Positions 36,960 to 53,395 of a stretch of 54,717 nt of DNA are shown piece by piece. Every line of letters begins with the position of its first letter. Within the stretch, counting starts at the first letter, position 1. The stretch comes from a virus. A program made the position numbers and the translations under genes. The notes below the pieces were generated by a model. That model saw only the letters and a program-made list of their open reading frames with translations, was not told the origin of the DNA and ran no database searches. The stretch lies in IMG/VR virus record IMGVR_UViG_3300045988_073391, positions 1 through 54,717 of that record, one strand, 5' to 3'.

Positions 36960-37030
36960 TGGCACATTAGGTAATGGCCGCAAGGTCAGGGCTTTGCAAT
37001 AGTGCTGGGGTTCGATGCCCCGTGTGCCAC
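36960..37030 (+). ncRNA. 71-nt degenerate tRNA-like element
   Basis: Acceptor TGGCACA pairs with TGTGCCA (7 bp). T arm is TGGGG/TTCGATG/CCCCG. The D and anticodon arms are not canonical. Confidence 0.4.
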
Positions 37031-37059
37031 TAATATTAACTAATAAAACCTTTAAGAAC

Positions 37060-37344
37060 ATGACAGACTTAGAAAATTACATTGTAGAGTGCATTATCAA
37101 AAGTGACGGTTATAATGACTGCTGCGACGGCTCTGTGTGGGTCGAATACGGCAGACTGACAATAGATTGCGACTACTCTATTGTTAGCGAGGGCTACTAC
37201 GATAATGATTACTACAACGGCACAGGCGCATTTGAAGAAACCTACTACAACTTCAGCATAGATGACTTAAAAGTCTATGACGAAGATGGCAAAGATGTAG
37301 TAGTGAATGTTGAAGCCATAGAGAAAGAACTAAACCAAAGATAA
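37060..37344 (+). CDS. Hypothetical acidic protein
   Basis: ATG at 37060 (MTDLENYIVE). The track start at 37015 lies inside the tRNA-like T arm. Confidence 0.5.
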   Translation: MTDLENYIVECIIKSDGYNDCCDGSVWVEYGRLTIDCDYSIVSEGYYDNDYYNGTGAFEETYYNFSIDDLKVYDEDGKDVVVNVEAIEKELNQR

Positions 37345-37347
37345 CCA

Positions 37348-37365
37348 GAGGGGCGAAAGCCCCTC
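37348..37365 (+). terminator. GAAA-tetraloop hairpin
   Basis: GAGGGGC, loop GAAA, GCCCCTC. No T-run. Confidence 0.35.
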
Positions 37366-37381
37366 ACAACACACTAAAAAC

Positions 37382-37690
37382 ATGAAAGAGACATTGAGAA
37401 AGATAATGAAGCTTGCTTGGCAGTTCGTCAAGAGAAATGGTTTTACATTGAGCGAAGCCCTAAAAGAAGCTTGGGCCAACATCAAGTTAGTAAACGCGAT
37501 GCACAATGGTATCGTTAAGTTCTACTTTACTAAGGTTGATGGCAGTAAACGCGAGGCATACGGCACACTGAGCAGCGAGGTGATTCCTCCTGTTGGTGGC
37601 GAGCGCAAGAATAATGACACCTGTCAAGTATACTTCGACACCGAGAAGCAGGCTTGGCGATGCTTCAAAAAAGCGAATTTGGCAATATAA
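37382..37690 (+). CDS. Hypothetical protein (possibly DUF2693/SH3-like)
   Basis: IVKFYFTKVDGSKREAYGTLS pattern. Assigned from memory only. Confidence 0.45.
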   Translation: MKETLRKIMKLAWQFVKRNGFTLSEALKEAWANIKLVNAMHNGIVKFYFTKVDGSKREAYGTLSSEVIPPVGGERKNNDTCQVYFDTEKQAWRCFKKANLAI

Positions 37691-37699
37691 ACAACATTA

Positions 37700-37724
37700 C
37701 CGGGCTATGTGAGAGGTAGCCCGG
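37700..37724 (+). terminator. 8-bp hairpin
   Basis: CCGGGCTA pairs with TAGCCCGG. Confidence 0.35.
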
Positions 37725-37740
37725 CTAAAACAACAAAAAT

Positions 37741-37965
37741 ATGAAATGGTTATGTTTTGCACTCATTGTCTTGCTTGATTTCCTTGCTTGCACAATGATG
37801 TGCGTGTCTACTGGGCACACCTGTTTTACGGTGTACGACATGATACCCCTGTGCGGCATCTCGCTATTTATTGCGACTGCAATCATTGCGGTGTGCGTAT
37901 ACAAGGCAAATATGTTTCCACAAAAGATACAGAAACTTATTAAATTTTCGATTGAAGATTGCTGA
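37741..37965 (+). CDS. Small Cys-rich two-TM protein
   Basis: 74-aa ORF; the stop is adjacent to the next ATG. Confidence 0.4.
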   Translation: MKWLCFALIVLLDFLACTMMCVSTGHTCFTVYDMIPLCGISLFIATAIIAVCVYKANMFPQKIQKLIKFSIEDC

Positions 37966-37966
37966 C

Positions 37967-38176
37967 ATGGACAAGAAACAAACAGACAAAGCAAAAAAAA
38001 TAATGCGCAAGGCTTACGAAGTCTACAATGAGATAGACGCTCTCGTAGGCCAGCTGCAAAGAGAAAAGGTAGACTATGAAGAAATAGAAGAGTTGATAAC
38101 TGCGCGCAACACATCATGCAATGTAGTTGACTCCCTCCAATACATAATAGAAACATTTGATGACAATGATAGGTAA
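37967..38176 (+). CDS. Hypothetical helical protein
   Basis: Internal ATG at 37967 (MDKKQTDKAKKIMRKAYEVYNEIDAL). Confidence 0.45.
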   Translation: MDKKQTDKAKKIMRKAYEVYNEIDALVGQLQREKVDYEEIEELITARNTSCNVVDSLQYIIETFDDNDR

Positions 38177-38251
38177 CATATACTGAGTTCTTTAAGGTTA
38201 TGGGCAATTACCCCAGTCGCGAGATTGCACGCCCTTTGTTTTTAGTGTGAC

Positions 38252-38271
38252 AGGCCGCTACTATGCGGCCT
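38252..38271 (+). other. 7-bp hairpin preceding the tRNA-like RNA
   Basis: AGGCCGC, loop tactat, GCGGCCT. Confidence 0.4.
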
Positions 38272-38276
38272 CACAA

Positions 38277-38423
38277 GCAGGTGATAGGCCGTTAATCGGA
38301 TAGACGGCAGAAGATAGTACATTGAACTCGCTACCATTATGATGCTGGATACCCCTTGGTAGCGCGTTCTTTTTTTGCGAAACGTTAGGGCATTAGCTGG
38401 TTCGACTCCAGCCACCTGCGCCA
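38277..38423 (+). ncRNA. 147-nt tRNA-like RNA with encoded CCA
   Basis: Acceptor GCAGGTG pairs with CACCTGC. T arm is GCTGG/TTCGACT/CCAGC, then G discriminator and CCA. A D-like arm GCCG/CGGC is present. About 85 nt replaces the anticodon arm. Confidence 0.5.
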
Positions 38424-38459
38424 AATAAAAGAAAGAGAAACAAAATAGAAAAATAAATC

Positions 38460-39050
38460 ATGGAAAAGAAAGAGGCAAAACCAATGACCTTTATTGAAAA
38501 GGTCGTATCTGTGCAACGAGATTTGAAAGCCCCCAAGGGACAATATAACAAGTTCGGCAAATACCGATACCGTTCTGCCGAGGATATTCTGAATTCTGTA
38601 AAACCTCTCCTTGCGAGCGTGGGCCTTGTGCTGACGCTCGAAGATGAAGTCTGCCTGATTGGCGCGCGATATTATATAAAGGCAACCGCAGTGCTGACAG
38701 ACGGCACACAAAACCTGGTAAAGAGTGCCTATGCGCGCGAGGACGAACAGCACAAGGGCAGCGATGGCGCGCAAATCACAGGCGCGGCAAGCTCATACGC
38801 ACGAAAGTACGCCCTTAACGGCCTGTTCTGCATAGACGATGCAAAGGACGCAGATGCAACAAATGACGGCACTGCACAAGCCAACAACAACCAACATGAG
38901 GAGCGCGTGCAGCTGGCAATACAAGAGGTTGACAATGCAAAGAGTAGAAAGTCACTCACGGACATTTGGAACAATTATTCTGACTTGCAGTCTGACGCAC
39001 GCTTCTCACAAGCAGTTGCAAATGCAAGTAAAAACTACCCCAAGCTATGA
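38460..39050 (+). CDS. erf: ERF-family single-strand annealing protein
   Basis: KFGKYRYRSAEDILNSVKPLLASVGLVL and QITGAASSYARKYALNGLFCIDD. Confidence 0.85.
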   Translation: MEKKEAKPMTFIEKVVSVQRDLKAPKGQYNKFGKYRYRSAEDILNSVKPLLASVGLVLTLEDEVCLIGARYYIKATAVLTDGTQNLVKSAYAREDEQHKGSDGAQITGAASSYARKYALNGLFCIDDAKDADATNDGTAQANNNQHEERVQLAIQEVDNAKSRKSLTDIWNNYSDLQSDARFSQAVANASKNYPKL

Positions 39051-39925
39051 TACTGAAATATTCAAGAGTTGACTACGACCCCGTTAGCCACACCTACACA
39101 CTGGACGGGAAACAATTAAGCGGCATTACTGGCGTAATCAAGGACAAGTTGTTCCCGTCCTATTACAAGGACGTTCCAGAGGACGTGTTGAACAAAGCCG
39201 CAGAACGCGGGCACCGCATACACACTGCAATAGAGCTATTTGACACGTGCGACATTCCAACCGAAGATTGCGATGAACTAAAAGGCTACATTGAAGAAAT
39301 CTTCTCACACGACTTTATTGGCCGACACATGGCAAGCGAATATGTGGTGAGCGATAATGAAAAGTATGCCAGTGCCATTGACAAGGTTTATGCCGACGGC
39401 ATGGGCGGCGTGATATTGGCAGACATCAAGACAACTTACAAACTTGACACGGATTATGTGTCGTGGCAGCTGTCTGTGTATGCCTATTTCTTCAGTATGC
39501 TCAACCCTGCCATTCCTGTAAGCGGTGCTTATGCCATCTGGCTAAGACGTGACAAACATAAGGTCGTGGAAGTTCCGCTGCGCCCTGTGGAAGATGTGCT
39601 CAAATTGTTATATGGCGACGAAGCACCAAAAAACGATTGTGGCTTCGGTGAGCTGTCTTTTACAGAGGATTACTTGCTTCAGTTAAAGAACGAAGCAGAA
39701 GAAGCCACAGCAAAGTACGAGCAAGCAAAGCAAGAGGCTCTTGCACTGCTCACGAAGAAAGGAATGAAGAATATACGCGGCTCGCACCTGATGATAACAC
39801 GAAGGGCTGACAGCGAGCGCAAAACATTCGACATCAAGAAGTTTAACACAGACCACCCAGAGCTATATGCGGAATATCTTAAAACCGCCATAACAAAAGG
39901 TGGCATAACAGTCAAGGCTATATGA
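39047..39925 (+). CDS. PD-(D/E)XK (Cas4/RecB-like) exonuclease
   Basis: RGHRIHTAIE, AIDKVY...ILADIKTT, WQLSVYAYFF. ATGA-coupled to erf. Confidence 0.7.
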   Translation: MILKYSRVDYDPVSHTYTLDGKQLSGITGVIKDKLFPSYYKDVPEDVLNKAAERGHRIHTAIELFDTCDIPTEDCDELKGYIEEIFSHDFIGRHMASEYVVSDNEKYASAIDKVYADGMGGVILADIKTTYKLDTDYVSWQLSVYAYFFSMLNPAIPVSGAYAIWLRRDKHKVVEVPLRPVEDVLKLLYGDEAPKNDCGFGELSFTEDYLLQLKNEAEEATAKYEQAKQEALALLTKKGMKNIRGSHLMITRRADSERKTFDIKKFNTDHPELYAEYLKTAITKGGITVKAI

Positions 39926-40176
39926 CACAGACATTTGTAAGCATTCCACTGGAGGATTGGCAACGCATGGTGTCAATACTTGAAAGAGTGGAAGAACGTC
40001 TGAAACCAGAAGACAAGTGGATAGGCACGAAAGAGGCTTGTGATATGCTTGGCATCACACCAAACACATGGATAAACTACCGAAAGAAATTCAAAGTGAA
40101 GTGTTCGCAGGTAGGGCGCAATGTGTTGGTGTTGAAGTCTGACGTTGAGCGACTGCTAAGGAAAAGAGAGCTATGA
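39922..40176 (+). CDS. Excisionase/MerR-type HTH protein
   Basis: WIGTKEACDMLGITPNTWINYRKK. Confidence 0.6.
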   Translation: MTQTFVSIPLEDWQRMVSILERVEERLKPEDKWIGTKEACDMLGITPNTWINYRKKFKVKCSQVGRNVLVLKSDVERLLRKREL

Positions 40177-40270
40177 ACGTATAAAAAACAGCACCTCGCC
40201 CAATCCCATAAGATTTTAGTTTGGCGACAATTTCTTTCGGGTGGGGTGCTTTCTTAATAAACCTACAATT

Positions 40271-40666
40271 ATGAACCAATGCTTTTTTATCGGCAACCTC
40301 GTTGCCAACGCCGCGCAGAAGAATGCTAACGGCAACAACTTTATAACATTCACCATCGCAGTAAACAGAAAGTATAAGGACAAGGAAACCGTACTGTTCG
40401 TGGAGTGCATTAAAAATGGTGATAACGCAAATCTCCTCCCATACTTGCAGAAGGGCAAAAAGGTGGCCGTCTGCGGCCGCGTGTCGTGCCATGCCTACAC
40501 CGACAACCAGGGCCAGCCGCGCGCATCTCTTGACTTATCTGTTTTCGAGCTTGAACTTGTAAGCAGTTCAAACACAACACAAGCACCGCAGCAAATGGCA
40601 GTCCAGGCACAAACGCCAAGCAATCCGTTCCCTACGAGCCAGCAAAGTGACGGACTCCCATTCTGA
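40271..40666 (+). CDS. ssb: Single-stranded DNA-binding protein
   Basis: MNQCFFIGNLVANA...VAVCGRVSCHAYTDNQG OB-fold pattern and acidic C-terminal tip DGLPF. Confidence 0.85.
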   Translation: MNQCFFIGNLVANAAQKNANGNNFITFTIAVNRKYKDKETVLFVECIKNGDNANLLPYLQKGKKVAVCGRVSCHAYTDNQGQPRASLDLSVFELELVSSSNTTQAPQQMAVQAQTPSNPFPTSQQSDGLPF

Positions 40667-41106
40667 TGAAGTACGATGTAAGCAACCCATTGCATAGGGA
40701 ACAGGCGAGGGAGCGACTTGAAGCATTGCTCGGCAAGGGGCATGGCATCATAGAATTGTCGGAGGTAAAACCGCAGCGCAGTATCAAGCAAAACAAGTAC
40801 CTGCACTTGCTGTTAGGATTTTTCGCTTCCGAATATGGTGAAACAATAGACTACGTAAAAGAGCAATACTTCAAGCTCGCTGCCAACCGTTCAATATTCG
40901 TGAGAGAACGAGATGACAAGTTGGCTGGCCGTGTTTCCTACCTGCGCTCCACACGCGACCTCGACAAAGGGGAAATGCAGATGGCAATAGAACGGTTTCG
41001 CAACTGGTCAAGCATTAACGCAGGCATTTACCTCCCATCGGCAGACGAGCACCGACTGCTTGAACTTGCAGAAATAGAAATAAGCAGAAACAAGAATTTC
41101 CTATGA
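40666..41106 (+). CDS. NinB-like recombination protein
   Basis: RSIKQNKYLHLLLG matches the RSxxQN motif of lambda NinB. Also RSTRDLDKGEMQMAIERF. Confidence 0.55.
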   Translation: MKYDVSNPLHREQARERLEALLGKGHGIIELSEVKPQRSIKQNKYLHLLLGFFASEYGETIDYVKEQYFKLAANRSIFVRERDDKLAGRVSYLRSTRDLDKGEMQMAIERFRNWSSINAGIYLPSADEHRLLELAEIEISRNKNFL

Positions 41107-41933
41107 ACGAGATACAAATTTTCAACAGCCCACAATTTGGCGAGATACGCACCGCAACTGACGACAACAACGAGCCTTTATTCTGTGCAGCTGATGTGTG
41201 CAAGGCCCTCGGATATGCAAAACCACAAAACGCTGTATCACAACACGTTGATGCACCCGATGCCCTGAAACGGGGCACCCCTACACAAGGTGGCATTCAG
41301 CAAATGACTTTCGTCAACGAGAGCGGACTTTATTCCCTCATCTTCGGCAGTAAGTTGGAGAGCGCGAAACAGTTCAAACGCTGGGTTACAAGCGAAGTCC
41401 TACCAGAAATCCGCAAAAACGGAGGATACATCAGAGGTAATGTGGACGAGACACCAGAAGAACTTATGGCACGAGCCTTGGCTGTTGCGAAGCAGACACT
41501 TGAAAGAGTGGAGCGCGAACGTCAACAACTCGCCAGCACCAACGAAAACCAACGCATACAATTAGGCATTCAGGACGCAGAGATTAGAAAAGCTGCTCCA
41601 AAGGTGGAATATTACGACAAGGTGATGCAGTCCAACTGCACCATGACAACCACTCAAATTGCCAACGGACTCGGAATGCCATGCCACAGACTGAACAAGT
41701 TGTTGCGAGATGCTGGCATTCAGTACAAGCAAAGCGGACAATGGTTGTTGCGCTCGCCATACACCGACTTCGGGCTGCACGCAGTACGCACACAAACCTA
41801 CACTCATGCCGATGGCTCAATAGGCACAAGCCAGTACACCGTATGGAACGAACGGGGTAAACGCTTCATTTCGGCACTTGTTGACAACAACTGGAACGTA
41901 AAACAAGCAATCAAAGTATTAAGCGATTTTTAG
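41103..41933 (+). CDS. Bro-N / KilAC-domain antirepressor
   Basis: IQIFNSPQFGEIRTATDDNNEPLFCAADVCKALGY...FKRWVTSEVLPEIRKNGGY, and the C-terminal KVEYYDKVMQSNCTMTTTQIA. Confidence 0.85.
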   Translation: MNEIQIFNSPQFGEIRTATDDNNEPLFCAADVCKALGYAKPQNAVSQHVDAPDALKRGTPTQGGIQQMTFVNESGLYSLIFGSKLESAKQFKRWVTSEVLPEIRKNGGYIRGNVDETPEELMARALAVAKQTLERVERERQQLASTNENQRIQLGIQDAEIRKAAPKVEYYDKVMQSNCTMTTTQIANGLGMPCHRLNKLLRDAGIQYKQSGQWLLRSPYTDFGLHAVRTQTYTHADGSIGTSQYTVWNERGKRFISALVDNNWNVKQAIKVLSDF

Positions 41934-41934
41934 T

Positions 41935-42174
41935 ATGAAATATATTGACAAAATATTTATTCTGTTCCGAGAGCGGAGAGCGCAAAGCAAGGCCAAGCAG
42001 TCCGAAATGCTGTGCGGCCAACTGTCAGAGCGCATTCAGGTAAAGGAGTTCCAAGGCCGTATGTACATAGCGGTCGATGGAGTGCCAATGATAGACACGG
42101 AGGACCTGCGGACTGGAGTTGTAGACGAACTTGCCGAAATACGCAACACCATCATAAAATACAAAATGCGTTGA
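41935..42174 (+). CDS. Hypothetical protein
   Basis: 79-aa ORF, tightly packed in the operon. Confidence 0.45.
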   Translation: MKYIDKIFILFRERRAQSKAKQSEMLCGQLSERIQVKEFQGRMYIAVDGVPMIDTEDLRTGVVDELAEIRNTIIKYKMR

Positions 42175-42175
42175 T

Positions 42176-42622
42176 ATGCCATACTACATCAAGAAAGAAA
42201 GTGCGAAAAAGAAACCACGCAAGAGCGGAACACGCACACTCATCAACAAACTTGACAAGATTTTCAGCCTCTACATAAGGTTGAGGGATAGCAAGCCATT
42301 TGGCTACAAGGCTTTCAAGTGCATATCATGCGGACGAATAAAGCCTTTCGCCAAGGCAGACTGCGGCCACTACTACTCACGCTCCAAAATGTCCACAAGG
42401 TACGACGAGGATAATTGTCATAGCGAATGCAATTTTTGCAACAGATTCAAATCAGACCATCTGGACGGTTACAGAGAGAACTTGATACGCAAGATAGGCC
42501 AAAGCAGATTCGACTTGTTGCGGTCACACTCCAACCAAGTTAAGAAGTGGTCAGAGTTCGAGTTGCAGCAACTAATCAAGTACTACTCGGCACTTGTTGA
42601 CAAAATGTTAGAAGAAAAATGA
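42176..42622 (+). CDS. NinG-like recombination/endonuclease protein
   Basis: LDKIFSLYIRLRD, KCISCGR, DCGHYYSRS, NCHSECNFCN. Confidence 0.65.
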   Translation: MPYYIKKESAKKKPRKSGTRTLINKLDKIFSLYIRLRDSKPFGYKAFKCISCGRIKPFAKADCGHYYSRSKMSTRYDEDNCHSECNFCNRFKSDHLDGYRENLIRKIGQSRFDLLRSHSNQVKKWSEFELQQLIKYYSALVDKMLEEK

Positions 42623-42828
42623 AACTATACCAGACACCGACAGAAAAGAAACGACAAAGGGAACATTCCAAGATATTCAGATTGTACTGCAAGCTGCAAG
42701 ACAGCACAGATTTGTCGAACAATCAGATATACAGCCACATTGCGTTTAAGCTTGGCTATTCGGTCAGCGGTGTGCGCAAAGTGGTCACACGCATCAAAAC
42801 CGAAAGACAATGTGCAATGGATGGATAA
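42619..42828 (+). CDS. Hypothetical protein
   Basis: ATGA coupling; 69 aa. Confidence 0.4.
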   Translation: MKLYQTPTEKKRQREHSKIFRLYCKLQDSTDLSNNQIYSHIAFKLGYSVSGVRKVVTRIKTERQCAMDG

Positions 42829-43655
42829 AGCTACACCGAAAAATTGTTGATTGGGAATGGTTCACTTGTTCTGCCACATTTCACCTGTTTATCTACCTGT
42901 TGTTAAAGGCAAGCAGAGAAGATAAACGGTGGAAAGGAATGGTTATAAAAAAGGGGCAGTTAGTCATATCAAGAGCTACGGCGTGCAAAGAAACTGGTCT
43001 AACAGCGCAACAATACCGCACCTCAATGGAAAGACTAAAATCAACCAACGAAATAACCAGCCAAACAACCAACAGATTTACACTCATAACTATCTGTAAA
43101 TACGAGAGTTACCAACTTACGGAAGATATAGAGCAACCAGCAAAACAACCAACGAAACAACCAGCAAACAACCAACGAGCAACCAACAAACAACCACATC
43201 TAAAGAATATAAGAAATAAAGAAAATAAGAATAACAAAGAATCTATACTCACTAACGTTCGTATAGATGAGAAAGCTACGGACGCTCCTGTCGTCGCTAC
43301 AACCACAACAGACGATATGGAACTTCGGAAAGAAAAATTTTATCAGTCTTTAGTGCCTTACGTCGCAAAGTATGGCAAGGACATGGTTCGGGCTTTCTAC
43401 GACTATTGGACGGAAAAAACGTATGGAGGACGAAAAATGCGGTTCGAGAAGCAACAAGCATTTGAAATCTCAAAACGTCTTGCCACATGGCAGAAACATG
43501 ATTTAAGCTATGCAAACAGAGATAACACAAGAATTGGTCAGTCGGGCAGCACTCGCGCAGAGCGAGATGCAGAGTTCCTTGCCCATGTCAGAGAAAAAAT
43601 GTCGCGCACTGACGAAGACGCAAGCGACATACCTTTTGCGCTACGCGACTGCTGA
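42810..43655 (+). CDS. Replication initiator / replisome organiser (winged-helix N-terminus)
   Basis: WIKLHRKIVDWEWF...GQLVISRATACKETGLTAQQYRTSMERLKS, with a low-complexity QPAKQPTKQPANNQ linker. Confidence 0.55.
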   Translation: MCNGWIKLHRKIVDWEWFTCSATFHLFIYLLLKASREDKRWKGMVIKKGQLVISRATACKETGLTAQQYRTSMERLKSTNEITSQTTNRFTLITICKYESYQLTEDIEQPAKQPTKQPANNQRATNKQPHLKNIRNKENKNNKESILTNVRIDEKATDAPVVATTTTDDMELRKEKFYQSLVPYVAKYGKDMVRAFYDYWTEKTYGGRKMRFEKQQAFEISKRLATWQKHDLSYANRDNTRIGQSGSTRAERDAEFLAHVREKMSRTDEDASDIPFALRDC

Positions 43656-45656: not shown

Positions 45657-45953
45657 ATGGAAACAAACATCGGGAAGAAAGTCATTATCCGCGGCGACCG
45701 CAGCGGAGTAGAGTTTGGAACATTGATAGCGCAAAACGGTCAAGAGGTTACACTGCACAATGCTCGTAGAATATGGTACTGGGAAGGAGCAGCATCTATT
45801 TCACAGCTCGCCGTAGATGGCACGTCTAGCCCAAGAGAATGCAAGTTTACTGTCACGGTAGAGAGTATTACCATTCTTGACGCAATAGAGATAATTCGAT
45901 GCACAGACAAAGCGATAGAATCAATAGAAGGTGTACCAGAATGGAAAAATTAG
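45657..45953 (+). CDS. Hypothetical conserved phage protein
   Basis: ATG at 45657. Contains VIIRGDRSGVEFGTLIAQNGQEVTLHNARRIWYWEGAASISQLA. Confidence 0.5.
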   Translation: METNIGKKVIIRGDRSGVEFGTLIAQNGQEVTLHNARRIWYWEGAASISQLAVDGTSSPRECKFTVTVESITILDAIEIIRCTDKAIESIEGVPEWKN

Positions 45954-46705
45954 AAACGCGCATAAAAGAATTTTTGAGCACAACCAGTGGCGATGGTTCT
46001 GGCCTTGGCTCTGGCTGTGGCTTTTTCGATAGCAGTGGCTGTGGTTATGGCGATGGCTCTGGTTATGGCTCTTTTTATGCCTCTGGCGATGGCTCTGGCC
46101 TTGGCGATGGCAAAGGCTATATACGTGGCGATGGCGATGGCTCTGGCAACGGCAAGGGCTTTGGTTCTGATGATGGCTGTGGCTATGGCTCTGGCAATGG
46201 CTTTGAGTCTCGCAGAGGCGTAAAGGAACTGAATGGAGAAAATGTCCATCTCGTAGATGGTCTTCAAACCATTATAAAATCAGTTCACGGCAACATTGCA
46301 CAATGTTTTGTCCTAAACAGCGACCTTACTTTGCAGCCTTGCTACATTGTCAAAGAACAAAATAAATTCGCTCATGGCAATACCTTGCACGATGCTTTCA
46401 CATCTCTGCAAGAGAAACTCGAGAGACTCTATGACGAGAGCACCGAGGAGGAGCGAATAGAGGCGTTTGTTGAGAAATTTCCAAACTACGACACGCCTTA
46501 TTCCAACCGCGACCTTTTCGATTATCACCACGTCCTCACTGGCTCATGTCGCATGGGTAGAGAGAGCTTTTGCAAGGATAAGGGCATAAACCTTGATGGC
46601 AGCACCACAGTCCGCGATTTCGTTTCTCTGACAAAGGATAGCTATGGGTCAGAAACTATTCGTATGCTACCGCAGGCTTATGGAGTGGACGAGATAGATG
46701 AATAG
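45941..46705 (+). CDS. Gly-rich (GDGSG/GYG) repeat protein with a globular C-terminal domain
   Basis: ATG at 45941. About 75 aa of G-x-G repeats, then VHLVDGLQTIIKSVHGNIAQCFVL...FAHGNTLHDA. Confidence 0.6.
   Translation: MEKLETRIKEFLSTTSGDGSGLGSGCGFFDSSGCGYGDGSGYGSFYASGDGSGLGDGKGYIRGDGDGSGNGKGFGSDDGCGYGSGNGFESRRGVKELNGENVHLVDGLQTIIKSVHGNIAQCFVLNSDLTLQPCYIVKEQNKFAHGNTLHDAFTSLQEKLERLYDESTEEERIEAFVEKFPNYDTPYSNRDLFDYHHVLTGSCRMGRESFCKDKGINLDGSTTVRDFVSLTKDSYGSETIRMLPQAYGVDEIDE
45987..46205 (+). repeat. Degenerate GGC-GAT-GGC-TCT-GG DNA repeats encoding the Gly-rich region
   Basis: ggcgatggctctgg occurs at 46049, 46085 and 46133, with many variants. The repeats create spurious ORFs on both strands. 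Confidence 0.8.
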
Positions 46706-46710
46706 TAATT

Positions 46711-46911: not shown

Positions 46912-46966
46912 CGTATGTATTAAAAATTATAACATTTATCAAAACAATATGGATTAGAAACAACGA

Positions 46967-47524: not shown

Positions 47525-47712
47525 CGGAAAAAGAAAAGATTAGAATGCTGCTCAAAATGCGCAACCAGATTGCGAGCATGGGCATGGACTACAAGTGCAG
47601 CTGCACATTCGTTGAAAACAGACTGACAGACCCGAATGTCGCAAAGACGTTTGATGCGCTGAGGGAGGCACTGGAAAATCAAATACGTAAACAATTCAAA
47701 TTTAACATTTAG
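47521..47712 (+). CDS. Hypothetical small protein
   Basis: ATGA coupling. Confidence 0.4.
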   Translation: MTEKEKIRMLLKMRNQIASMGMDYKCSCTFVENRLTDPNVAKTFDALREALENQIRKQFKFNI

Positions 47713-47716
47713 AGCT

Positions 47717-48031
47717 ATGACAACAACATTATACAATTACACACCCCACTCGATAACGCTTAACAGCGGAGAGAAGTATGACAGTGTCGGGGTGGCACGA
47801 GTTCAGAACACTTTCAGCGAGGTTGATGATAACGGCATTTGCTCGGTTGAATATGGCGACATAACGGGGCTTCCAGAACCTAAAGATGGCTGCACGTATA
47901 TCGTAAGCGCATTGGTACTTGCGGCAGCTAAGGCGGCTGGCAGAACGGATTGCGTTGCGCCTGCAACGGGCCACCCTGATTGTCTGCGCAAGGACGGGTT
48001 TATCGTTTCTGTTCCTTGCTTTGTGAGATAA
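47717..48031 (+). CDS. Hypothetical protein
   Basis: 104-aa ORF. Confidence 0.45.
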   Translation: MTTTLYNYTPHSITLNSGEKYDSVGVARVQNTFSEVDDNGICSVEYGDITGLPEPKDGCTYIVSALVLAAAKAAGRTDCVAPATGHPDCLRKDGFIVSVPCFVR

Positions 48032-48058
48032 CATTACTAACAACAAAAACCAAACAAT

Positions 48059-48742
48059 ATGCAAGTAGAAATAAGTGCAATGATTGAGGATTACGATATT
48101 CTCGCTTACGTGCCGACGCATAAACAGGCTAAAGTAATTGACAACATCTTCTATGAGTGTGCCGAAGAGAGTAGAAGAGAATTTATTCACGGTCTTGATG
48201 ATTCTTACCTCATAGAAGAATTAGAAGAAAGAGGTTTTACAATAACTAAAAAACGAACAACAATGGATAACAAAGTATTTGACTATCACGAAATCAAAAC
48301 CTTTGCAGATGCTTGTGAGAAGTTGGGCATGAAAGAACACCTACTTACTGGCAGTATGGGTGGAGATAGAGAAGCGCAAGGACAAGCGCAAGCACTTTAC
48401 AAGTTGCTGATTATCCAAAAGGCTATCAACAATGGCAAGTGGCGTGATGAAGAAGGCTGGAGCTTTTACCCTTACTGGGTGCTCTACTCTAAGGAAGAAA
48501 TGGAGCGCATGAGTGAGGAGGAGAAGCAGAGAAAGGGTATTAGACAGCTCCTCTCCTGTGCTGATGCGGATAGTACGGGGAGTGCGGGTGTCCGCTGTGC
48601 GTATGCGAGTAATCGTGGTGCGCATACGGTTACGAGTTTTGGTTTCCCCTTGTGCTTTAACAGCGAGGAAGCCGCCCTCTACGCCGCCCATCAGTTTGAA
48701 GATTTGTTCTTTCAGTACTACGGAATTAAAGTAAAAGCGTAA
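48059..48742 (+). CDS. Hypothetical protein
   Basis: 227-aa ORF. Confidence 0.5.
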   Translation: MQVEISAMIEDYDILAYVPTHKQAKVIDNIFYECAEESRREFIHGLDDSYLIEELEERGFTITKKRTTMDNKVFDYHEIKTFADACEKLGMKEHLLTGSMGGDREAQGQAQALYKLLIIQKAINNGKWRDEEGWSFYPYWVLYSKEEMERMSEEEKQRKGIRQLLSCADADSTGSAGVRCAYASNRGAHTVTSFGFPLCFNSEEAALYAAHQFEDLFFQYYGIKVKA

Positions 48743-48758
48743 CATAACTAAAAACAAT

Positions 48759-48995
48759 ATGGGAAAGAAGCAATACAACGAATGGATAAGCGTTAAGGAC
48801 GAGCTTCCAGAATATGAGGAGGTCGTGCTTGTGTGCAACGAAAAAGACCCTTGTGATGTTTGGTTTGCATCTCGTAGCAGCCTGCATGCACGTACCGATA
48901 TCAATGGCTTCGGTAAAAGTATTGAAGATGATGTAACTCATTGGACAAGAGTTAAACCATTAAACAAGAGACAATATGACACGAACAAAATTTAA
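48759..48995 (+). CDS. DUF551-like protein
   Basis: WISVKDELPEYEEVVLVC...THWTRVKPL. Confidence 0.55.
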   Translation: MGKKQYNEWISVKDELPEYEEVVLVCNEKDPCDVWFASRSSLHARTDINGFGKSIEDDVTHWTRVKPLNKRQYDTNKI

Positions 48996-49506
48996 GAAAA
49001 TTCCGTTTAACCTTGAACTTGCGAAGAAAATAATGAACAAGGAGGTAAAAGGAAGGATAGTATCAGAAGATGGTCGTAAGGTTCGCATTATTTACATCGA
49101 CAACGAGTCCTTTACTGAAACAACATTCCTCGCACTGTATAAGGATAAAGATTTTAATATAGAGAGAGACTACCGATTGAATAAAGATGGAAGATATTTC
49201 CGAGGAGAAAGAAGTGACCTTGACCTCCATATTGAAGTCCCAAAATACCGCGACTACTCCAACTTTGTTCCTCAAAGATGGCAGACTTGTTTGGTGAGAG
49301 ATTATTCTTTAGATATATGGAGAGTAGCAGTATGTAGCGGAAAAGATGCTTATGGTAGACCACTCTTTTACTCGGAAAGGAATACTCATGGCTGTTGCGG
49401 TTGGTATCATTATCTCCCACTTTCTAAGGTAACCGAGCGTCTGATTGGTATAAGCAAGAGCTACGAGCAGTTGATTAAAGAGCTTGACGGAAATGGGCAA
49501 GATTAA
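48976..49506 (+). CDS. Hypothetical protein
   Basis: 176-aa ORF. Confidence 0.5.
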   Translation: MTRTKFKKIPFNLELAKKIMNKEVKGRIVSEDGRKVRIIYIDNESFTETTFLALYKDKDFNIERDYRLNKDGRYFRGERSDLDLHIEVPKYRDYSNFVPQRWQTCLVRDYSLDIWRVAVCSGKDAYGRPLFYSERNTHGCCGWYHYLPLSKVTERLIGISKSYEQLIKELDGNGQD

Positions 49507-49663
49507 AGCATGTGACGGGCAAGGCTGCAAGGAGCGCAAGGCTTGCCTGCGATTTGCTCTGTCGCATACAGAGAGTGACAGACACAACATTCACAAGGCT
49601 TGCTATTTCGCAAGTCCGAACGGGCGAGACTGCCCGATAATGATTAAACAAAGAACAATATGA
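49493..49663 (+). CDS. 56-aa Cys-rich ORF (not in the ORF track)
   Basis: MGKIKACDGQGCKERKACLRFALSH...RDCPIMIKQRTI. Overlaps the upstream gene by 14 nt and is ATGA-coupled to the next gene. Confidence 0.4.
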   Translation: MGKIKACDGQGCKERKACLRFALSHTESDRHNIHKACYFASPNGRDCPIMIKQRTI

Positions 49664-49968
49664 AAGAGGACATGACTGCACTTGTGCTAAGACACATACC
49701 AGAACGTGTTCCGCGCACCAAAGCGGAGCTTGCCGACATCTATCTGACCGAGTCGAATAAAATTGAAACAGACCGCATGAAGTCGCGTGAGAGAAAACGT
49801 GACGATGACGAGGTGGTCAAGAGCCGCTACGACTCGCTGATTGCCGACAAGGAGGCACTACTCACCGAACTGCAAAACGAGATAGAGAAACTTAGACATG
49901 AGATGTCTGGGAAACTCTTATATGCCAGTTTGGAAGAGGAGCTCAGGAACCTGGAACTTGCCGACTGA
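49660..49968 (+). CDS. Hypothetical coiled-coil protein
   Basis: 102-aa ORF. Confidence 0.5.
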   Translation: MKEDMTALVLRHIPERVPRTKAELADIYLTESNKIETDRMKSRERKRDDDEVVKSRYDSLIADKEALLTELQNEIEKLRHEMSGKLLYASLEEELRNLELAD

Positions 49969-50059
49969 CGGAAGGTGCTTGATATGTGGTTTGAGACAAT
50001 GCGAAACAGAATAGAAAAAGAACAAGGAAACAGCAAATAACAAAAAAAACGAATAAATT

Positions 50060-50353
50060 ATGACGAAACTTTTTGTAGAAGAATTGAAGGATATGTATGC
50101 AGTGTTAGAAGATGCCATACAGAACTCTGACCACACGGATTTTGACCAGTGTTATTGGGCACTTGAAGAGTTGTGCAAGCACGCCCTGCACGGCTCAGAC
50201 AGATATGAGGGAGTGGCTTCTATTCGTGATTTTAGAAATATGGAAAAAAGAGACATGAATTATGTGCAGGGACTCATGAGCAAGGAGCAGGAGAAAGCTT
50301 ACCTTGATGATGAGTGGGAACGCCTAACTGGTAAAGAGGAGGGTAAGGAATGA
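50060..50353 (+). CDS. Hypothetical protein
   Basis: 97-aa ORF. Confidence 0.5.
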   Translation: MTKLFVEELKDMYAVLEDAIQNSDHTDFDQCYWALEELCKHALHGSDRYEGVASIRDFRNMEKRDMNYVQGLMSKEQEKAYLDDEWERLTGKEEGKE

Positions 50354-50541
50354 TAGCGATGATTTTTGCCGCTGTGGCGTTTATCTGTGGTATGTTCGTT
50401 GCTTACCTTGCAGGCAAGGATATTGGCAGAGAGAACGGATATTATGAGGGCCGCAGCGAGGCTCGCAGAGACCTTGAACACATTGTTGAACACTACAAAA
50501 AAATGGCTTATGCAAAGGACACTCCAACAGAGGGCGCGTGA
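50350..50541 (+). CDS. Small N-terminal-TM protein
   Basis: ATGA coupling. Starts MIAMIFAAVAFICGMFVAYLAG. Confidence 0.45.
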   Translation: MIAMIFAAVAFICGMFVAYLAGKDIGRENGYYEGRSEARRDLEHIVEHYKKMAYAKDTPTEGA

Positions 50542-50662
50542 GGCTGCCGACCGCATTCGCTGTGACGAGTGTGGCGAGCAAAGCACTTGTACGCCACTTA
50601 TGGCGAAAGCCTGTCTTAAAGGTTTTATTCGCGGTTATGTTGCCGCTAATTCTAAAAATTGA
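50510..50662 (+). CDS. 50-aa Cys-containing ORF (tentative)
   Basis: ATG at 50510 in the frame of track ORF 50366-50662. The tail AADRIRCDECGEQSTCTPLMAKACLKGFIRGY looks protein-like. Confidence 0.3.
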   Translation: MQRTLQQRAREAADRIRCDECGEQSTCTPLMAKACLKGFIRGYVAANSKN

Positions 50663-50667
50663 CAAAA

Positions 50668-50763
50668 ATGAAACTACTGATAGTAATAGCACTAATGTTG
50701 TTCGTTTACTGGCTCTGGAAGGACATCAACCGTCATGACGGACCACCGATTGCGAGCAACTAA
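50668..50763 (+). CDS. 31-aa hydrophobic ORF (tentative)
   Basis: MKLLIVIALMLFVYWLWKDINRHDGPPIASN. Confidence 0.3.
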   Translation: MKLLIVIALMLFVYWLWKDINRHDGPPIASN

Positions 50764-50773
50764 TTAGCAACAT

Positions 50774-50891
50774 ACCCCACTTACCAACCTCATATTTTAT
50801 TTACTTCATAAATATAAATGGTTTTGTTTAGTTGGATTGTTTTTAATTGCCCGAGGTCTGGTAACACTCGGTCCGTGTCCGAGGTGGGGTA
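50774..50891 (+). ncRNA. Structured tRNA-like element, unit A
   Basis: Acceptor-like ACCCCAC (50774-50780) pairs with GTGGGGT (50884-50890). Bipartite helix ACCA-CCTC (50783-50791) pairs with GAGG-TGGT (50853-50862). T-arm-like CTCGG/TCCGTGT/CCGAG (50867-50883). Confidence 0.5.
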
Positions 50892-50897
50892 CTTATA

Positions 50898-51001
50898 AGC
50901 CCTCTCTGCAACGCCACAATTTTATTTACTTAATACTAAAGGATTGATTTTTAATGGTGCAGTGGTGTCGGCAGCACGTGGTTCGTGGCCACGGAGGGCG
51001 C
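50898..51001 (+). ncRNA. Structured tRNA-like element, unit B
   Basis: GCCCTC (50899-50904) pairs with GAGGGC (50994-50999). CTGC-CGCCAC (50906-50917) pairs with GTGGTG-GCAG (50962-50974). CGTGG/TTCGTGG/CCACG (50977-50993). The AT-rich interior is shared with unit A. Confidence 0.5.
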
Positions 51002-51020
51002 AATTTTAATGAGAAATAAT

Positions 51021-51185
51021 ATGACTACAAAACAAGTTATTCACGCCCTGCACCTGCACCAGAAATGGCGCAGAGGGGCAATTAGCGAGATGCCTCTGAC
51101 GGCAAAGGAATATGGTGAAACCTTGGACGAGGCAATAAGACTATTACGGCAATATGACAAACAGCAAGACGGGGCAGTGCGGTGA
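51021..51185 (+). CDS. Hypothetical small protein
   Basis: ATG at 51021 (MTTKQVIHALHLHQKWRRG). Confidence 0.4.
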   Translation: MTTKQVIHALHLHQKWRRGAISEMPLTAKEYGETLDEAIRLLRQYDKQQDGAVR

Positions 51186-51306
51186 GTGCCTGAGGTTCGC
51201 CAAGGGCAGATGCCCGAAATTCTTTTCCAACTCTGTGCGGACAGCGTGTAATGGCTTCACACAGAGCAAATCAGTAACTAAAAATACACACTTCGATAAA
51301 GTATAA
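51154..51306 (+). CDS. 50-aa Cys-rich ORF (not in the ORF track)
   Basis: MTNSKTGQCGECLRFAKGRCPKFFSNSVRTACNGF... Shares the CLRFA core with ORF 49493-49663. Confidence 0.35.
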   Translation: MTNSKTGQCGECLRFAKGRCPKFFSNSVRTACNGFTQSKSVTKNTHFDKV

Positions 51307-51311
51307 ACATT

Positions 51312-51671
51312 ATGACATTCGACGAATACCAAGAACTTGCAATGACTTTCTGCACAAAGGAGAGTAACAATTTACCATACATGATACTCGGCCTTAACGA
51401 GGAAGTAGGAGAACTGACAGGAAAGCTTGCAAAAGCAGTGCGCAAGGGACTGCTAAAACCTGACCTTACCTTTGACGAGGACAACGTGAGTGAAGAACAT
51501 TTTGAACTCATGGACAACATTACAAAGGAATGTGGCGATGTACTATGGATGCTCGCTGGGGTACACTCCGTTCTTAACAAACGGCTCGAAACTACTGCGC
51601 ATCTGAATATACACAAACTTACAAGCCGCAAAAAACGAGGCGTTATCGTCGGGGATGGCGACAACAGATGA
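51312..51671 (+). CDS. mazG: MazG-like nucleotide pyrophosphohydrolase
   Basis: LGLNEEVGELTGKLAK and ECGDVLWMLAGV. Confidence 0.8.
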   Translation: MTFDEYQELAMTFCTKESNNLPYMILGLNEEVGELTGKLAKAVRKGLLKPDLTFDEDNVSEEHFELMDNITKECGDVLWMLAGVHSVLNKRLETTAHLNIHKLTSRKKRGVIVGDGDNR

Positions 51672-52285
51672 GCAAAGATTGGAATGGAGGATTTAATTCC
51701 GTTTTCAAATGTCTCGGCGCAAGCTCGCACACTGAAAAAGAACGCGAGCCTAACGACTACTATGCCACAAGCCCTGAAGCAATAGACCTGTTGTTTGAAA
51801 GCAACAACTTCGTTCGGCCAAAATATGTTTGGGAGTGCGCATGCGGTGAGGGGCATCTCGCAAAACGACTTGCCGATTTTGGCTGCAAAGTATATTCGTC
51901 AGACCTCATTTATAGGGGGTTCGGCACAGGTGGCGTTGACTTCCTTGAACAGGTTGAAATGCCATTCCGTAACGTTGGAAGATGTATTATCACTAATCCT
52001 CCGTATAAATACGCTATGGAGTTTATACTTCATGCGCTTGCCTTGCTTGAAAATGGTGAACGCGCGGTGTTCTTCCTAAAGACAAGTGCGCTTGAAGGCA
52101 AGAAAAGATACGAAAGGTTATTCAAGCCTTTCCCTCCTAAAATGATTTACCAATTCAAAGGGAGAGTCATCTGCGCAAAAAATGGCGATTTTGGAAACAT
52201 GAAGAAGGTCGGCAGTGCGGTTAGCTATGCCTGGTTTGAATGGGTCAAAGGCTATAACGGTGTAACTAATATTTGTTGGATATGA
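51668..52285 (+). CDS. N6-adenine DNA methyltransferase (orphan)
   Basis: SAM motif VWECACGEGHL and catalytic motif CIITNPPYKY. Confidence 0.8.
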   Translation: MSKDWNGGFNSVFKCLGASSHTEKEREPNDYYATSPEAIDLLFESNNFVRPKYVWECACGEGHLAKRLADFGCKVYSSDLIYRGFGTGGVDFLEQVEMPFRNVGRCIITNPPYKYAMEFILHALALLENGERAVFFLKTSALEGKKRYERLFKPFPPKMIYQFKGRVICAKNGDFGNMKKVGSAVSYAWFEWVKGYNGVTNICWI

Positions 52286-52719
52286 TAGATGTAGAAAAAT
52301 TGTCAGTCTTGGAAAAGCTTGTCAAGGAGCAAAGAGCATTACGTAAGAGAATTGAAACCGCTTTCCCCAAAAGGCAGATAGATAAAAATTCCATAGCTTG
52401 TTTCTTTGGTGCAATGACAGCCTTGGGAATAGAGAAAGACGCAAAGCTTTTTGTTATGCTTTACCTTTGTTCCCCCCATACACTTTCTGGGTGCAAGATG
52501 AAGCGAGGCTTACGCGACTTTTTGGCATCATTGTTCAAGTATACATCTCCAAGTTCTGTGTCAATGAAAAGTAGAGGTCTACTTTTCCGGTATAAGCATT
52601 ACAAGACTATGCAGAATGACGTAGACCGGGCTTTGAATGCCATAAGAAAGAGTTTTGACAGCGGAGTTCTAAACATTTGCGAAGCTCCTAATAATCAACA
52701 ACTTACGAACGAAAAATAA
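52282..52719 (+). CDS. Hypothetical protein
   Basis: ATG at 52282 overlaps the methyltransferase TGA. Confidence 0.45.
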   Translation: MIDVEKLSVLEKLVKEQRALRKRIETAFPKRQIDKNSIACFFGAMTALGIEKDAKLFVMLYLCSPHTLSGCKMKRGLRDFLASLFKYTSPSSVSMKSRGLLFRYKHYKTMQNDVDRALNAIRKSFDSGVLNICEAPNNQQLTNEK

Positions 52720-52753
52720 CCCAAAAATATTTGCACATATAATACTTATTGCA

Positions 52754-52761
52754 TACCTTTG
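52754..52761 (+). promoter_or_regulatory. TAnnTTTG box upstream of the tRNA
   Basis: TACCTTTG, 95 nt before the tRNA 5' end. Confidence 0.45.
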
Positions 52762-52855
52762 CAAACGGTTGAAAACCTTACAAACCTATTAGTAACAATA
52801 AGGTGAAGAATCAATTTGTTGATGAATTGCGAATGTTCTATTTTTGTGTCTATAT

Positions 52856-52927
52856 CGCAGGGTAGAGCAGTGGTAGCTCGTCAGTCTGACTTACTGAAAG
52901 TCGCAAGTTCGATTCTTGCCCCTGCAA
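52856..52927 (+). tRNA. tRNA, anticodon GAC by manual fold (Val), with an initiator-like acceptor end
   Basis: Manual fold: CGCAGGG-TA-GAGC-AGTGGTA-GCTC-G-TCAGT-CTGACTT-ACTGA-AAGTC-GCAAG-TTCGATT-CTTGC-CCCTGCA-A. All four arms are canonical. C1 lies opposite A72, T is at position 37, and CCA is not encoded. Confidence 0.75.
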
Positions 52928-52939
52928 CAACTTACAACA

Positions 52940-53395
52940 ATGAAAGTACTTACGCTATCAATCAAGAGAGAATGGTTTGACAAAATTCTCGCTGGCGAAA
53001 AAGACCATGAGTATCGCGAAGTAACCCCAAAAAGTGGTGGCAAATACATCAATTACATACTAAATGGGCAAATCGTCCCATTCAATTATGATGGCGAAAT
53101 CAAAGATGAAGACACCATAGGCATTGAATGCAGACAATATGACGCTATTAAATTTCTAACTGGTGCGTATAGTGGCAAACGCCCTTGGGCATTAGTAGAA
53201 GTGAAAAGTGTTGAGCACCAATTTCTGTTTGACGAAGATGGTAAAGATGTTTTCGTTAACTCAGCTGTAGAGTATACAGGTAATGGTGCTCAAGTTAGAT
53301 ATGTTCTAAGTGATGAGGAAGATGATTATTGGCTTGTGCAGCGAATGGACTATACCTTGGGCAAAGTACTTGATAAGAATCTAAATCCCGAATAA
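52940..53395 (+). CDS. ASCH-domain protein
   Basis: ATG at 52940. MKVLTLSIKREWFDKILAGEKDHEYRE is the typical ASCH N-terminus. Confidence 0.65.
   Translation: MKVLTLSIKREWFDKILAGEKDHEYREVTPKSGGKYINYILNGQIVPFNYDGEIKDEDTIGIECRQYDAIKFLTGAYSGKRPWALVEVKSVEHQFLFDEDGKDVFVNSAVEYTGNGAQVRYVLSDEEDDYWLVQRMDYTLGKVLDKNLNPE

Follow-up and report, generated by a model that had tools for sequence, protein, structure and literature searches.

A stretch of phage DNA from IMG/VR (record IMGVR_UViG_3300045988_073391, 54,717 nt, analysed over its whole length and called the window below) carries five intergenic elements in which a tRNA-like acceptor helix is stacked on a T arm. One of them is a tRNA-Val gene, the sole genuine transfer RNA (tRNA) of the five. 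The other four, E1 to E4, are best explained as derivatives of tRNA that no longer have a decoding anticodon loop nor, in E1, E3 and E4, a D arm, while the acceptor/T-arm minihelix, the part of tRNA recognised by host maturation enzymes, has been retained. We propose with moderate confidence that the early transcripts include these non-decoding elements and that tRNA-maturation enzymes excise them, which would at the same time cut the transcripts. The elements, and a hairpin adjacent to one of them, are located as follows.

36960-37030, + strand: E1, tRNA-like element of 71 nt (scans and fold; 'tRNA-???' in ARAGORN, no Rfam match)
38252-38271, + strand: hairpin AGGCCGC-UACUAU-GCGGCCU, read from the sequence, stopping 5 nt short of E2
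38277-38423, + strand: E2, tRNA-like element of 143 nt plus an encoded GCCA (scans, fold and family comparison; no Rfam or transfer-messenger RNA (tmRNA) match)
50774-50891, + strand: E3, tRNA-like element of 118 nt (scans and fold; one phage lineage only)
50898-51001, + strand: E4, paralogue of E3, 104 nt (relaxed scan, fold and comparison)
52856-52928, + strand: tRNA-Val (GAC) (ARAGORN; Rfam RF00005, 59.5 bits)

A first-pass annotation of the window had placed five such elements in intergenic gaps of the + strand, and all of them are present. A relaxed, uniform scan (5-bp T stem, loop TYCG, at least six contiguous acceptor pairs stacked on the T stem) returned exactly these five on the + strand and none on the opposite one. 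In 200 shuffles it gave 0.12 ± 0.35 sites, with a maximum of 2. Under strict settings (5-bp T stem, 7-nt loop T[TC][CG][GA], perfect 7-bp acceptor stacked on the T stem, at most one G-U pair), four sites were found against 0.29 expected per strand, namely E1 (36960-37029), E2 (38277-38419), E3 (50774-50890) and one unrelated site on the + strand. The perfect 7-bp terminal helix that had been ascribed to the elements is real in E1, E2 and E3 and absent from E4. There the terminal helix can be drawn in two ways, with 6 bp on a T stem of 5 bp, leaving A.G at 1:72, or with 7 bp, one of them G-U, on a T stem of 4 bp.

Predicted folds close both the acceptor and the T arm in all five elements, with z-scores from -2.2 to -2.8. 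ARAGORN reports from the window only the tRNA-Val gene and E1, the latter with a 4-nt anticodon. Rfam was searched at gathering and at permissive thresholds in the window and 12 related loci. In the window tRNA-Val alone matched, E1-E4 giving no family even at E<=10 in permissive local searches; over the whole set no family was found for E1-E4, for short elements of the E2 type or for the hairpin that precedes many elements of relatives (both described below).

The four elements differ in what they have put between acceptor and T arm. In E1 the 7-bp acceptor is followed by an 11-bp arm with a GCAA tetraloop, which replaces the D and anticodon arms, then by a mini-hairpin and a T arm of canonical form (GGGG UUCGAUG CCCC); the discriminator base is C. 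E2 comprises, from 5' to 3', one acceptor strand, a 4-base connector AUAG, a D arm whose stem has 5 bp and whose class-II-like loop is UAAUCGGAUAG, a 75-nt insertion with a covarying hairpin, a GCAUUAG block, a canonical T arm (GCUGG UUCGACU CCAGC) and the other acceptor strand. E3 consists of a 7-bp acceptor, a long arm (UUACC.ACCUC/GAGGU..GGUAA) and the T arm CUCGG UCCGUGU CCGAG; E4 of an acceptor of 6-7 bp, a long arm (CUGC.ACGCCAC/GUGGUGU..GCAG) and the T arm CGUGG UUCGUGG CCACG. In both paralogues the long arm encloses an AU-rich interior of about 40-57 nt where an anticodon arm would be expected, and a two-base connector (CA) joins it to the T arm. All three helices are kept in E3 and E4 and are built from different sequences, while their interiors have the motifs AUUUUAUUUACUU and GGAUUGnUUUUUAAU in common (listed for E4 as AUUUUAUUUACUU and GGAUUGAUUUUUAAU).

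E1-E4 fail the gathering threshold of the canonical tRNA model (RF00005, 29 bits), they have no anticodon arm with a 5-bp stem, 7-nt loop and 3-nt anticodon, and they are members neither of tRNA nor of tmRNA nor of Y RNA. What they keep is the minihelix. A 7-bp acceptor, a 5-bp T stem and a UUCRA T-loop are present in E1, E2 and tRNA-Val, and the coaxial helix of acceptor and T stem, about 12 bp in a minimal substrate, measures 12 bp in E1-E3 and in the tRNA and 11 bp in E4. The flanks of all five elements are unpaired and A-rich. The tRNA-Val itself has a C1.A72 mismatch and U at position 37.

The distances to the following start codons were also reproduced: 29-30 nt from E1 to ATG 37060, 36 nt from the encoded GCCA of E2 to ATG 38460 of erf, 19 nt from E4 to ATG 51021 and 12 nt from the tRNA to ATG 52940 of an ASCH-domain gene. 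E3, described previously as adjoining the next unit, is separated from E4 by a spacer of 6-7 nt. Closeness to a start codon is in part a trivial outcome of genome compaction, yet the pattern recurs in relatives.

The family to which E2 belongs shows strong covariation. IMG/VR was scanned twice with sequence patterns and the GTDB genomes once, which yielded 50 distinct closed members of this type, 73-226 nt long, from IMG/VR phages and Bacteroidales genomes. Their layout from 5' to 3' is acceptor, AUAG, D arm (NNNGN UAAWYGGAUAG NNNNN), a centre that varies between 13 and 165 nt, ACAUUAG, T arm GGUUCGAYUCC, acceptor. E2 agrees with every block of this 'GAUAG' family except for one base, the window copy having GCAUUAG instead of ACAUUAG; E1, E3 and E4 do not match the pattern. 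Most pattern matches rejected by the closure rule are register variants (with 6/6 stems, for example) and should not be taken for non-elements. In the aligned constant parts 96% of cells pair, double changes occur in 14 of 17 pairs, and the covariation score is 0.786 versus 0.18 in shuffles and at most 0.16 with partners slid, figures to which the acceptor and T stems contribute after having been partly selected for pairing by the extraction. The D stem was not so selected, and it is 92.5% paired with four of its five pairs covarying.

This family escapes the usual tools. ARAGORN calls one of the 50 members a tRNA, Rfam 15 gave nothing in six loci holding short members, and BLAST found no match to the family among 50,697 deposited phage genomes. 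The GTDB scan revealed E2-type elements also in assemblies of Prevotellamassilia, Alistipes and Bacteroidaceae, and their presence there points to Bacteroidales as the likely host of the window phage. An open reading frame (ORF) starts on the same strand within 40 nt of 30 of the 55 E2-type elements and within 100 nt of 41. These downstream genes are mutually unrelated, and no conserved protein-coding neighbour shared with the window emerged when the surroundings of E2-type elements were searched for one.

E2 belongs to the long form of the family (142-151 nt), whose inner hairpin covaries between AT-rich and GC-rich phages. Single-stranded motifs invariant in the long form are GAUAGUAC, GAYGCUGGAUAGCC and AACGUUAGGAC; the D loop CGGAUAG and GUUAGGACAUUAG are listed as invariant loop motifs of E2 as well. 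They are kept across phages that differ in GC content and in neighbouring genes, and we know of no requirement for them in recognition by RNase P. Because the loops are invariant and the family stands ahead of unrelated genes, the RNA that would be excised at E2 looks, from sequence comparison, like a selected product in its own right.

Other interpretations of E2 were tried and rejected. As a tmRNA it would have A3-U70 in place of G3.U70, and it has no conserved tag ORF, no predicted pseudoknots and no ARAGORN tmRNA call; the tmRNA models of Rfam reach at most 9 bits on E2 and cover the T arm only. A mini-tmRNA with the tag GCU GGA UAG likewise has no G3.U70, and this motif recurs as a D-loop-like GAUAG repeat. 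In the lineage of the window the inner hairpin of E2 is followed by U7 (together 38324-38375) and so resembles a weak intrinsic terminator just 5' of erf. Other members have GGUAUUC or GGUCUUG in place of the U tract, and the hairpin loop has 20 nt; the terminator was therefore dismissed.

For a wider survey, 88 related loci (numbered L001 onwards with further loci below) were fetched via Erf or the methyltransferase and subjected to the strict minihelix scan. The gene strand carried 161 minihelices and the opposite strand 11. ARAGORN calls few of them. Many of these elements score 35-58 bits as tRNA in Rfam, with the anticodon loop turned into a tetraloop (UUCC, GAUA or AGAU) or expanded by long insertions; other forms have 57 nt and little beyond the minihelix. 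In this series, from real tRNA through 'anticodon-less' tetraloop tRNA to minihelix alone, only the acceptor/T-arm module is constant. Even a single position can be occupied by different forms: where the window has E2, L004 has a tRNA-Met, 22 nt 5' of erf, and L005 a 75-nt E2-type element with an AGAU tetraloop.

Some relatives accumulate the elements in ORF-free arrays of four to six tRNA-like genes (L011 2974-3900, L009 1395-3591), again with UUCC or GAUA tetraloops or long insertions. The array of L011 comprises four elements in 1 kb without ORFs and ends in a canonical terminator (CTGCCTGTAC-AATACC-GTACAGGCAG-TTTTTT), behind which a promoter-like motif and erf follow. By its layout this array is a putative self-contained non-coding RNA operon. 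Two elements of unusual construction were seen in these loci. The 132-nt element at L009 1395-1526 bears at the anticodon site an insertion made of a T-arm-like and then a D-arm-like hairpin, a nested permuted tRNA-like module. At L005 3390-3485 lies a 96-nt tRNA-like gene with a duplicated GGUUAGAGC segment (ARAGORN 'tRNA-Pyl (cta)', 51.8 bits with the Rfam tRNA model), possibly an amber-suppressor-like tRNA or another insertion-bearing tRNA-like element.

Among 193 distinct element contexts in the related loci, 70 have an ORF starting with ATG at most 40 nt downstream on the same strand (median 32 nt), 56 continue with another element and 39 have a downstream gap above 100 nt. On the other side, a stable hairpin ends within 12 nt of the 5' end of 57% of elements, as compared with 29% of random positions. 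In many relatives this upstream hairpin has covarying stems and a near-invariant loop, GGUUCGUGAGAAUAG, which combines a T-loop-like GGUUCG with a D-loop-like RAUAG. It is found 2-11 nt 5' of many tRNA-like elements and always on the gene strand, for instance at L005 2243-2275, 3513-3545 and 3861-3890, at L011 3486-3512 and 3643-3672, and in L231 (Prevotellamassilia timonensis). L231 comes from the cultured strain Marseille-P2831 and has two E2-type elements in tandem. Of the first 88 loci, 28 contain the loop as an exact 15-mer; the window does not, and the hairpin has no Rfam match.

For the remaining elements, nhmmer searches with E1, E3 and E4 against 229 loci matched near-identical relatives only. 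E1 is identical in six of them and nearly identical in a seventh. Its conservation reaches 99.5% as against 63-83% in the flanks (73% in the upstream non-coding sequence, 63% in the downstream ORF), so that E1 is a clear conservation island in these alignments, with no variation among the relatives from which covariation could be read.

E3 and E4 are confined to one phage lineage, represented by about 25 contigs in a tight pattern scan, where changes cluster in the AU-rich interior and the stems hardly vary. A loose interior pattern (GGATTGN{0,2}TTTTAATKG) run over IMG/VR gave mostly chance matches. L081, L082 and L087 carry several wobble-compatible stem changes. L005 retains a truncated remnant of E3. 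Some relatives have inserts between the two elements, about 420 nt long in L082-L084 and L086 (about 2808-3228) and about 110 nt in L085 (about 3118-3225). The inserts lie exactly between E3 and E4 and hold hairpins and possibly a 68-aa ORF on the minus strand; the junction of E3 and E4 looks like a hot spot for insertion.

The genes and signals surrounding the elements are these.

33374-34588, minus strand: integrase gene
35987-36547, minus strand: S24-peptidase repressor gene, divergent from the early promoter motifs
36783-36840, + strand: overlapping pair of promoter motifs of Bacteroidetes type, serving the early rightward operon, about 120 nt 5' of E1 (pattern search)
37060-37344, + strand: first early ORF, 94 aa, no family match, starting 29 nt past E1
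38460-39050, + strand: erf, single-stranded DNA-annealing protein (Pfam ERF 4e-39, PHROG 155), starting 36 nt past E2
50674-50763, + strand: small conserved hydrophobic ORF, 29 aa, ending 10 nt before E3, its C-terminus conserved in L005
51021-51185, + strand: ORF, 54 aa, starting 19 nt past E4
52815-52846, + strand: promoter motif of Bacteroidetes type, its end 10 nt ahead of the tRNA; another at 52730-52761
52940-53395, + strand: ASCH-domain gene (Pfam ASCH), starting 12 nt past the tRNA
53427-53474, + strand: terminator-like hairpin with a T-rich tail, closing the promoter-tRNA-ASCH unit

The ends of the window are an exact direct repeat of 55 nt (1-55 = 54663-54717), which makes the window a complete phage genome, circularly closed or circularly permuted, with 54,662 bp. 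The phage is a temperate gut phage of Bacteroidales type, encoding also a KilA-N protein. Its long rightward early operon contains genes for a WYL_2/Sm-like protein, Erf, a PD-(D/E)XK exonuclease, SSB, an antirepressor, NinG, MazG, a DNA methyltransferase, ASCH and a PAPS-reductase-like protein. Uncultured contigs of IMG/VR are its close relatives, and near and distant BLAST searches with the window region, E2 and the L011 array against the 50,697 deposited phage genomes of INPHARED gave no informative match. A search for the Bacteroidetes promoter pattern TTTG-N17-23-TAnnTTTG found five occurrences in the window, four of them at two places, 36783-36840 and 52730-52846. Behind E4, an ATG at 51009, in frame with 51021 and upstream of it, is lost in L087, which identifies ATG 51021 as the conserved start. 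The segment 52730-53474 reads as a self-contained cassette of putative promoter, tRNA, gene and terminator, and the promoter-tRNA-ASCH unit is missing from relatives L081, L082, L084 and L087.

Several further features of this genome deserve mention. In the lysogeny region, 30069-31470 on the minus strand, a HigB/RelE-like toxin gene lies beside a gene combining a helix-turn-helix domain with an M78 peptidase (IrrE/ImmA-like), a candidate toxin-antitoxin-like or anti-repressor pair. A 39-nt repeat, 95% identical, occurs at 34551-34589, covering the 5' end of the integrase gene, and 943 nt away at 35494-35532, duplicating the integrase coding start MKYVYTFAVDA. E1, of all elements the nearest to the integrase gene, was considered as attP and rejected on position: the integrase is 2.4 kb away, and a position between the early promoter and the first gene is implausible for such a site. 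At 45981-46226, inside ORF 45899-46705, about 13 overlapping copies of a 12-nt-periodic, GGC/GAT-rich repeat encode a Gly-rich repetitive segment of a product with no Pfam match.

How might such elements work? The acceptor/T-arm minihelix is a minimal substrate of RNase Z and of the CCA-adding enzyme. It is a minimal substrate of RNase P as well, and RNase P cleaves acceptor/T-arm model hairpins, the phage M3 and C4 RNAs and operon messenger RNAs (mRNAs) (PMC11143913). As the minihelix is at once the module constant in all forms and this minimal substrate, we infer excision by RNase P and RNase Z. The elements would be transcribed within early rightward transcripts, E1 in the leader behind the early promoter, E2 and E3/E4 inside the operon and tRNA-Val as the first unit behind its own promoter. 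RNase P would cut at the 5' end of each acceptor stem and RNase Z, or an equivalent 3' pathway, past the discriminator base, and tRNA-like RNAs of 70-145 nt would be released. The polycistronic RNA would be severed too. The next cistron would be left with an A-rich leader of 12-36 nt, and the upstream RNA would end in a hairpin where one is present; that in front of E2 would cap the upstream fragment. Effects on translation or RNA stability may follow. Translation may be favoured by a free 5' end and a short A-rich leader, especially in hosts whose initiation is not driven by Shine-Dalgarno sequences.

A processing or punctuating role, by analogy with tRNAs of organelles, had been suggested in the first-pass annotation. 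It is plausible in view of the minihelix, the common orientation, the intercistronic sites and the recurring positional bias, and it does not stand as the sole role. Several observations weigh against punctuation, or against efficient excision. Since the L011 array has a terminator of its own and stands alone, punctuation cannot be the general purpose of these elements. A close relative has an extra element before a gene that has none in the window; as the same downstream gene occurs with and without an element, the elements are not required for its expression. Several other gaps of at least 90 nt in the same operon contain no element, and the inserts of 110-420 nt part E3 from E4 in some relatives. 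Uncompensated stem mutations exist in E3 (L081 and L082) and in E4 (L081 and L087). The coaxial stack of E4 has 11 bp, not 12, in either pairing; the T-loops of E3 (UCCGUGU) and E4 (UUCGUGG) have no canonical A58; and E1, E3 and E4 have no D loop for the elbow that RNase P contacts. For these last three reasons E1, E3 and E4 may be poorer substrates of RNase P. Punctuation is thus plausible and probably incomplete, and under the excision model it would be a real consequence of excision. Taken together, the arrays, the invariant loops of E2 before unrelated genes, the extra element, the E3-E4 inserts and the empty gaps suggest selection on the released RNAs themselves.

In a rival explanation it is the released RNAs for which the elements are selected; they would act in trans, and their position before genes would be incidental. 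They might serve as decoys or sponges for host factors that use the acceptor/T-arm or the elbow to bind or attack tRNA, namely tRNA-targeting immune nucleases, toxins modifying the CCA tail, or modification or charging enzymes. The invariant loops of E2, conserved irrespective of GC content and neighbouring genes, speak for this model, as do arrays of four to six elements with no ORFs between them and a terminator of their own, and the clean exchange of the anticodon loop for a tetraloop in a remainder that is still tRNA-like. Near-identical phages gain and lose the elements rapidly, which is typical of accessory or counter-defence loci, and tRNA-targeting defences with phage tRNA counter-measures are well documented (PMC11555353, PMC10802454, PMC12851939), in the light of which a part in, or directed against, host processes centred on tRNA is attractive. 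Still, the model rests entirely on inference: no defence system, binding partner or conserved neighbouring protein gene was identified, the interiors of the elements have no antisense targets in the phage genome beyond chance 10-12-mers, and E1, E3 and E4, having neither D arm nor canonical elbow, would mimic a minihelix only. We regard action in trans with incidental position as possible, though rather unlikely. Tentatively, and with slightly less reserve, one may imagine that the elements of the window are the tip of a large undescribed repertoire in temperate Bacteroidales phages, comprising the GAUAG family, tetraloop tRNAs and minihelix-only forms, many with the GGUUCGUGAGAAUAG hairpin. 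Once set free by the tRNA-maturation enzymes of the host, these RNAs would act in trans on its tRNA world, for example as decoys against tRNA-targeting immunity, and would be a new class of phage effector RNAs, more than processing signals.

Two explanations would dispense with a functional RNA. Were the elements decaying tRNA pseudogenes, functionless relics of a former phage tRNA cluster, one would understand why E1-E4 stay below any Rfam tRNA threshold, why some relatives have uncompensated stem mismatches, why E4 is about as divergent as its own flanks (84%) and why E3 is truncated in L005. Pure decay is contradicted by conservation and covariation, namely the sharp island of E1, the covarying stems and invariant loops of 50 distinct E2-type sequences and the three helices that E3 and E4 keep in differing sequence; nor would neutral decay spare exactly the minihelix in every element or produce a strand bias of 161:11. 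We consider it improbable. The elements might also act as DNA, as attP-like cores or cassette boundaries promoting mosaic exchange of early modules. tRNA genes are classical integration targets, several elements do lie at mosaic junctions (the extra element of L001-L003 is at most 5 nt from the junction of a module replacement), E1 is an island between diverged flanks, inserts fall exactly between E3 and E4, and the tRNA-Val/ASCH unit behaves as a cassette. Compensatory changes in three or four helices, however, reveal selection on the RNA fold and not on DNA sequence, and the strict strand bias follows the direction of transcription; these two facts contradict a role in recombination, which is in our opinion very improbable. 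Excision from early transcripts accordingly remains the explanation that we prefer.

Whatever their precise role, the elements show that 'intergenic' regions of phages are under-annotated. A conserved, covarying tRNA-like family is now defined; many uncultured gut phages contain it, as do Bacteroidales genomes, it is practically invisible to ARAGORN and Rfam 15, and its RNAs are candidates for new phage-host interactions around tRNA biology. Our full-text literature searches turned up no account of the GAUAG family, the tetraloop forms or the intercistronic placement. A survey of structured RNAs in IMG/VR (Comput Struct Biotechnol J 2023) listed 'tRNA or tRNA-like' candidates in uncultured phages, some of them 5' of genes; its main text presents only five tRNA-like candidates, each overlapping an ARAGORN call, and there neither the GAUAG family nor tetraloop forms nor an intercistronic pattern appear (PMC10690425).

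Known RNAs resemble the elements in part. The general layout of E2 and E3/E4 is that of tmRNA, where acceptor and T arm are kept and the anticodon arm has become a long helix leading to an inserted domain, while the G3.U70 pair, tag ORF and pseudoknots are not those of E2. YrlA Y RNAs, which occur in phages, have a tRNA-like domain of T and D arms recognised by RNase P and the CCA-adding enzyme (PMC4201824). Unlike the elements described here, whose ends form the acceptor stem, they are circularly permuted, carry a Ro60-binding helix and lie beside rsr. No Ro60/TROVE protein was found among 40 Pfam-scanned proteins of the lysogeny and early regions (structural genes were outside the scan), and there was no Rfam Y-RNA match. 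Among phages, the closest counterparts are RNAC and RNAD of T4 (species 1 and 2 RNAs), whose termini are tRNA-like and which mature through the tRNA-processing machinery. Like the elements, they are small stable phage-encoded RNAs, co-transcribed with tRNAs, and their roles are still unknown (PMC3014915). They have no sequence relation to the elements and belong to a dedicated tRNA cluster of a lytic coliphage, whereas the elements are scattered among protein genes of a temperate Bacteroidales phage.

RNase P is known to act on tRNA or tRNA-like modules within longer bacterial and phage transcripts and to alter the fate of the flanking RNA (PMC11143913, PMC2190699). In thrU-tufB, in the his, tna and rbs operons and in the C4 RNAs of P1/P7 and the M3 RNA of phi80, such modules are embedded in transcripts as they are here; they are genuine tRNAs or loose tRNA-like folds, in contrast to the dedicated, conserved, non-decoding tRNA-like genes of these phages. 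The closest functional analogues would be the tRNA punctuation of organelles and the t-elements of plant mitochondria, non-decoding tRNA-like structures that can define mRNA ends (PMC1920247). In organellar polycistronic transcripts, cleavage by RNase P and RNase Z at tRNAs and t-elements sets the 5' and 3' ends of mRNAs (PMC1920247, PMC3790967). Anatomy and position next to mRNA ends are alike: all five elements of the window are tRNA-like, intergenic and co-oriented, adjoining cistrons on the coding strand. The differences are that t-elements and animal mitochondrial punctuation are organellar and depend on protein-only or organellar RNase P, that cleavage in the phage is presumed, that many members stand in mRNA-free arrays and that E2 has conserved extra domains for which punctuation has no need. 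If the transcripts are cleaved as predicted, tRNA-shaped modules organise early transcripts in temperate gut phages of Bacteroidales and would be a bacterial-virus counterpart of organellar punctuation.

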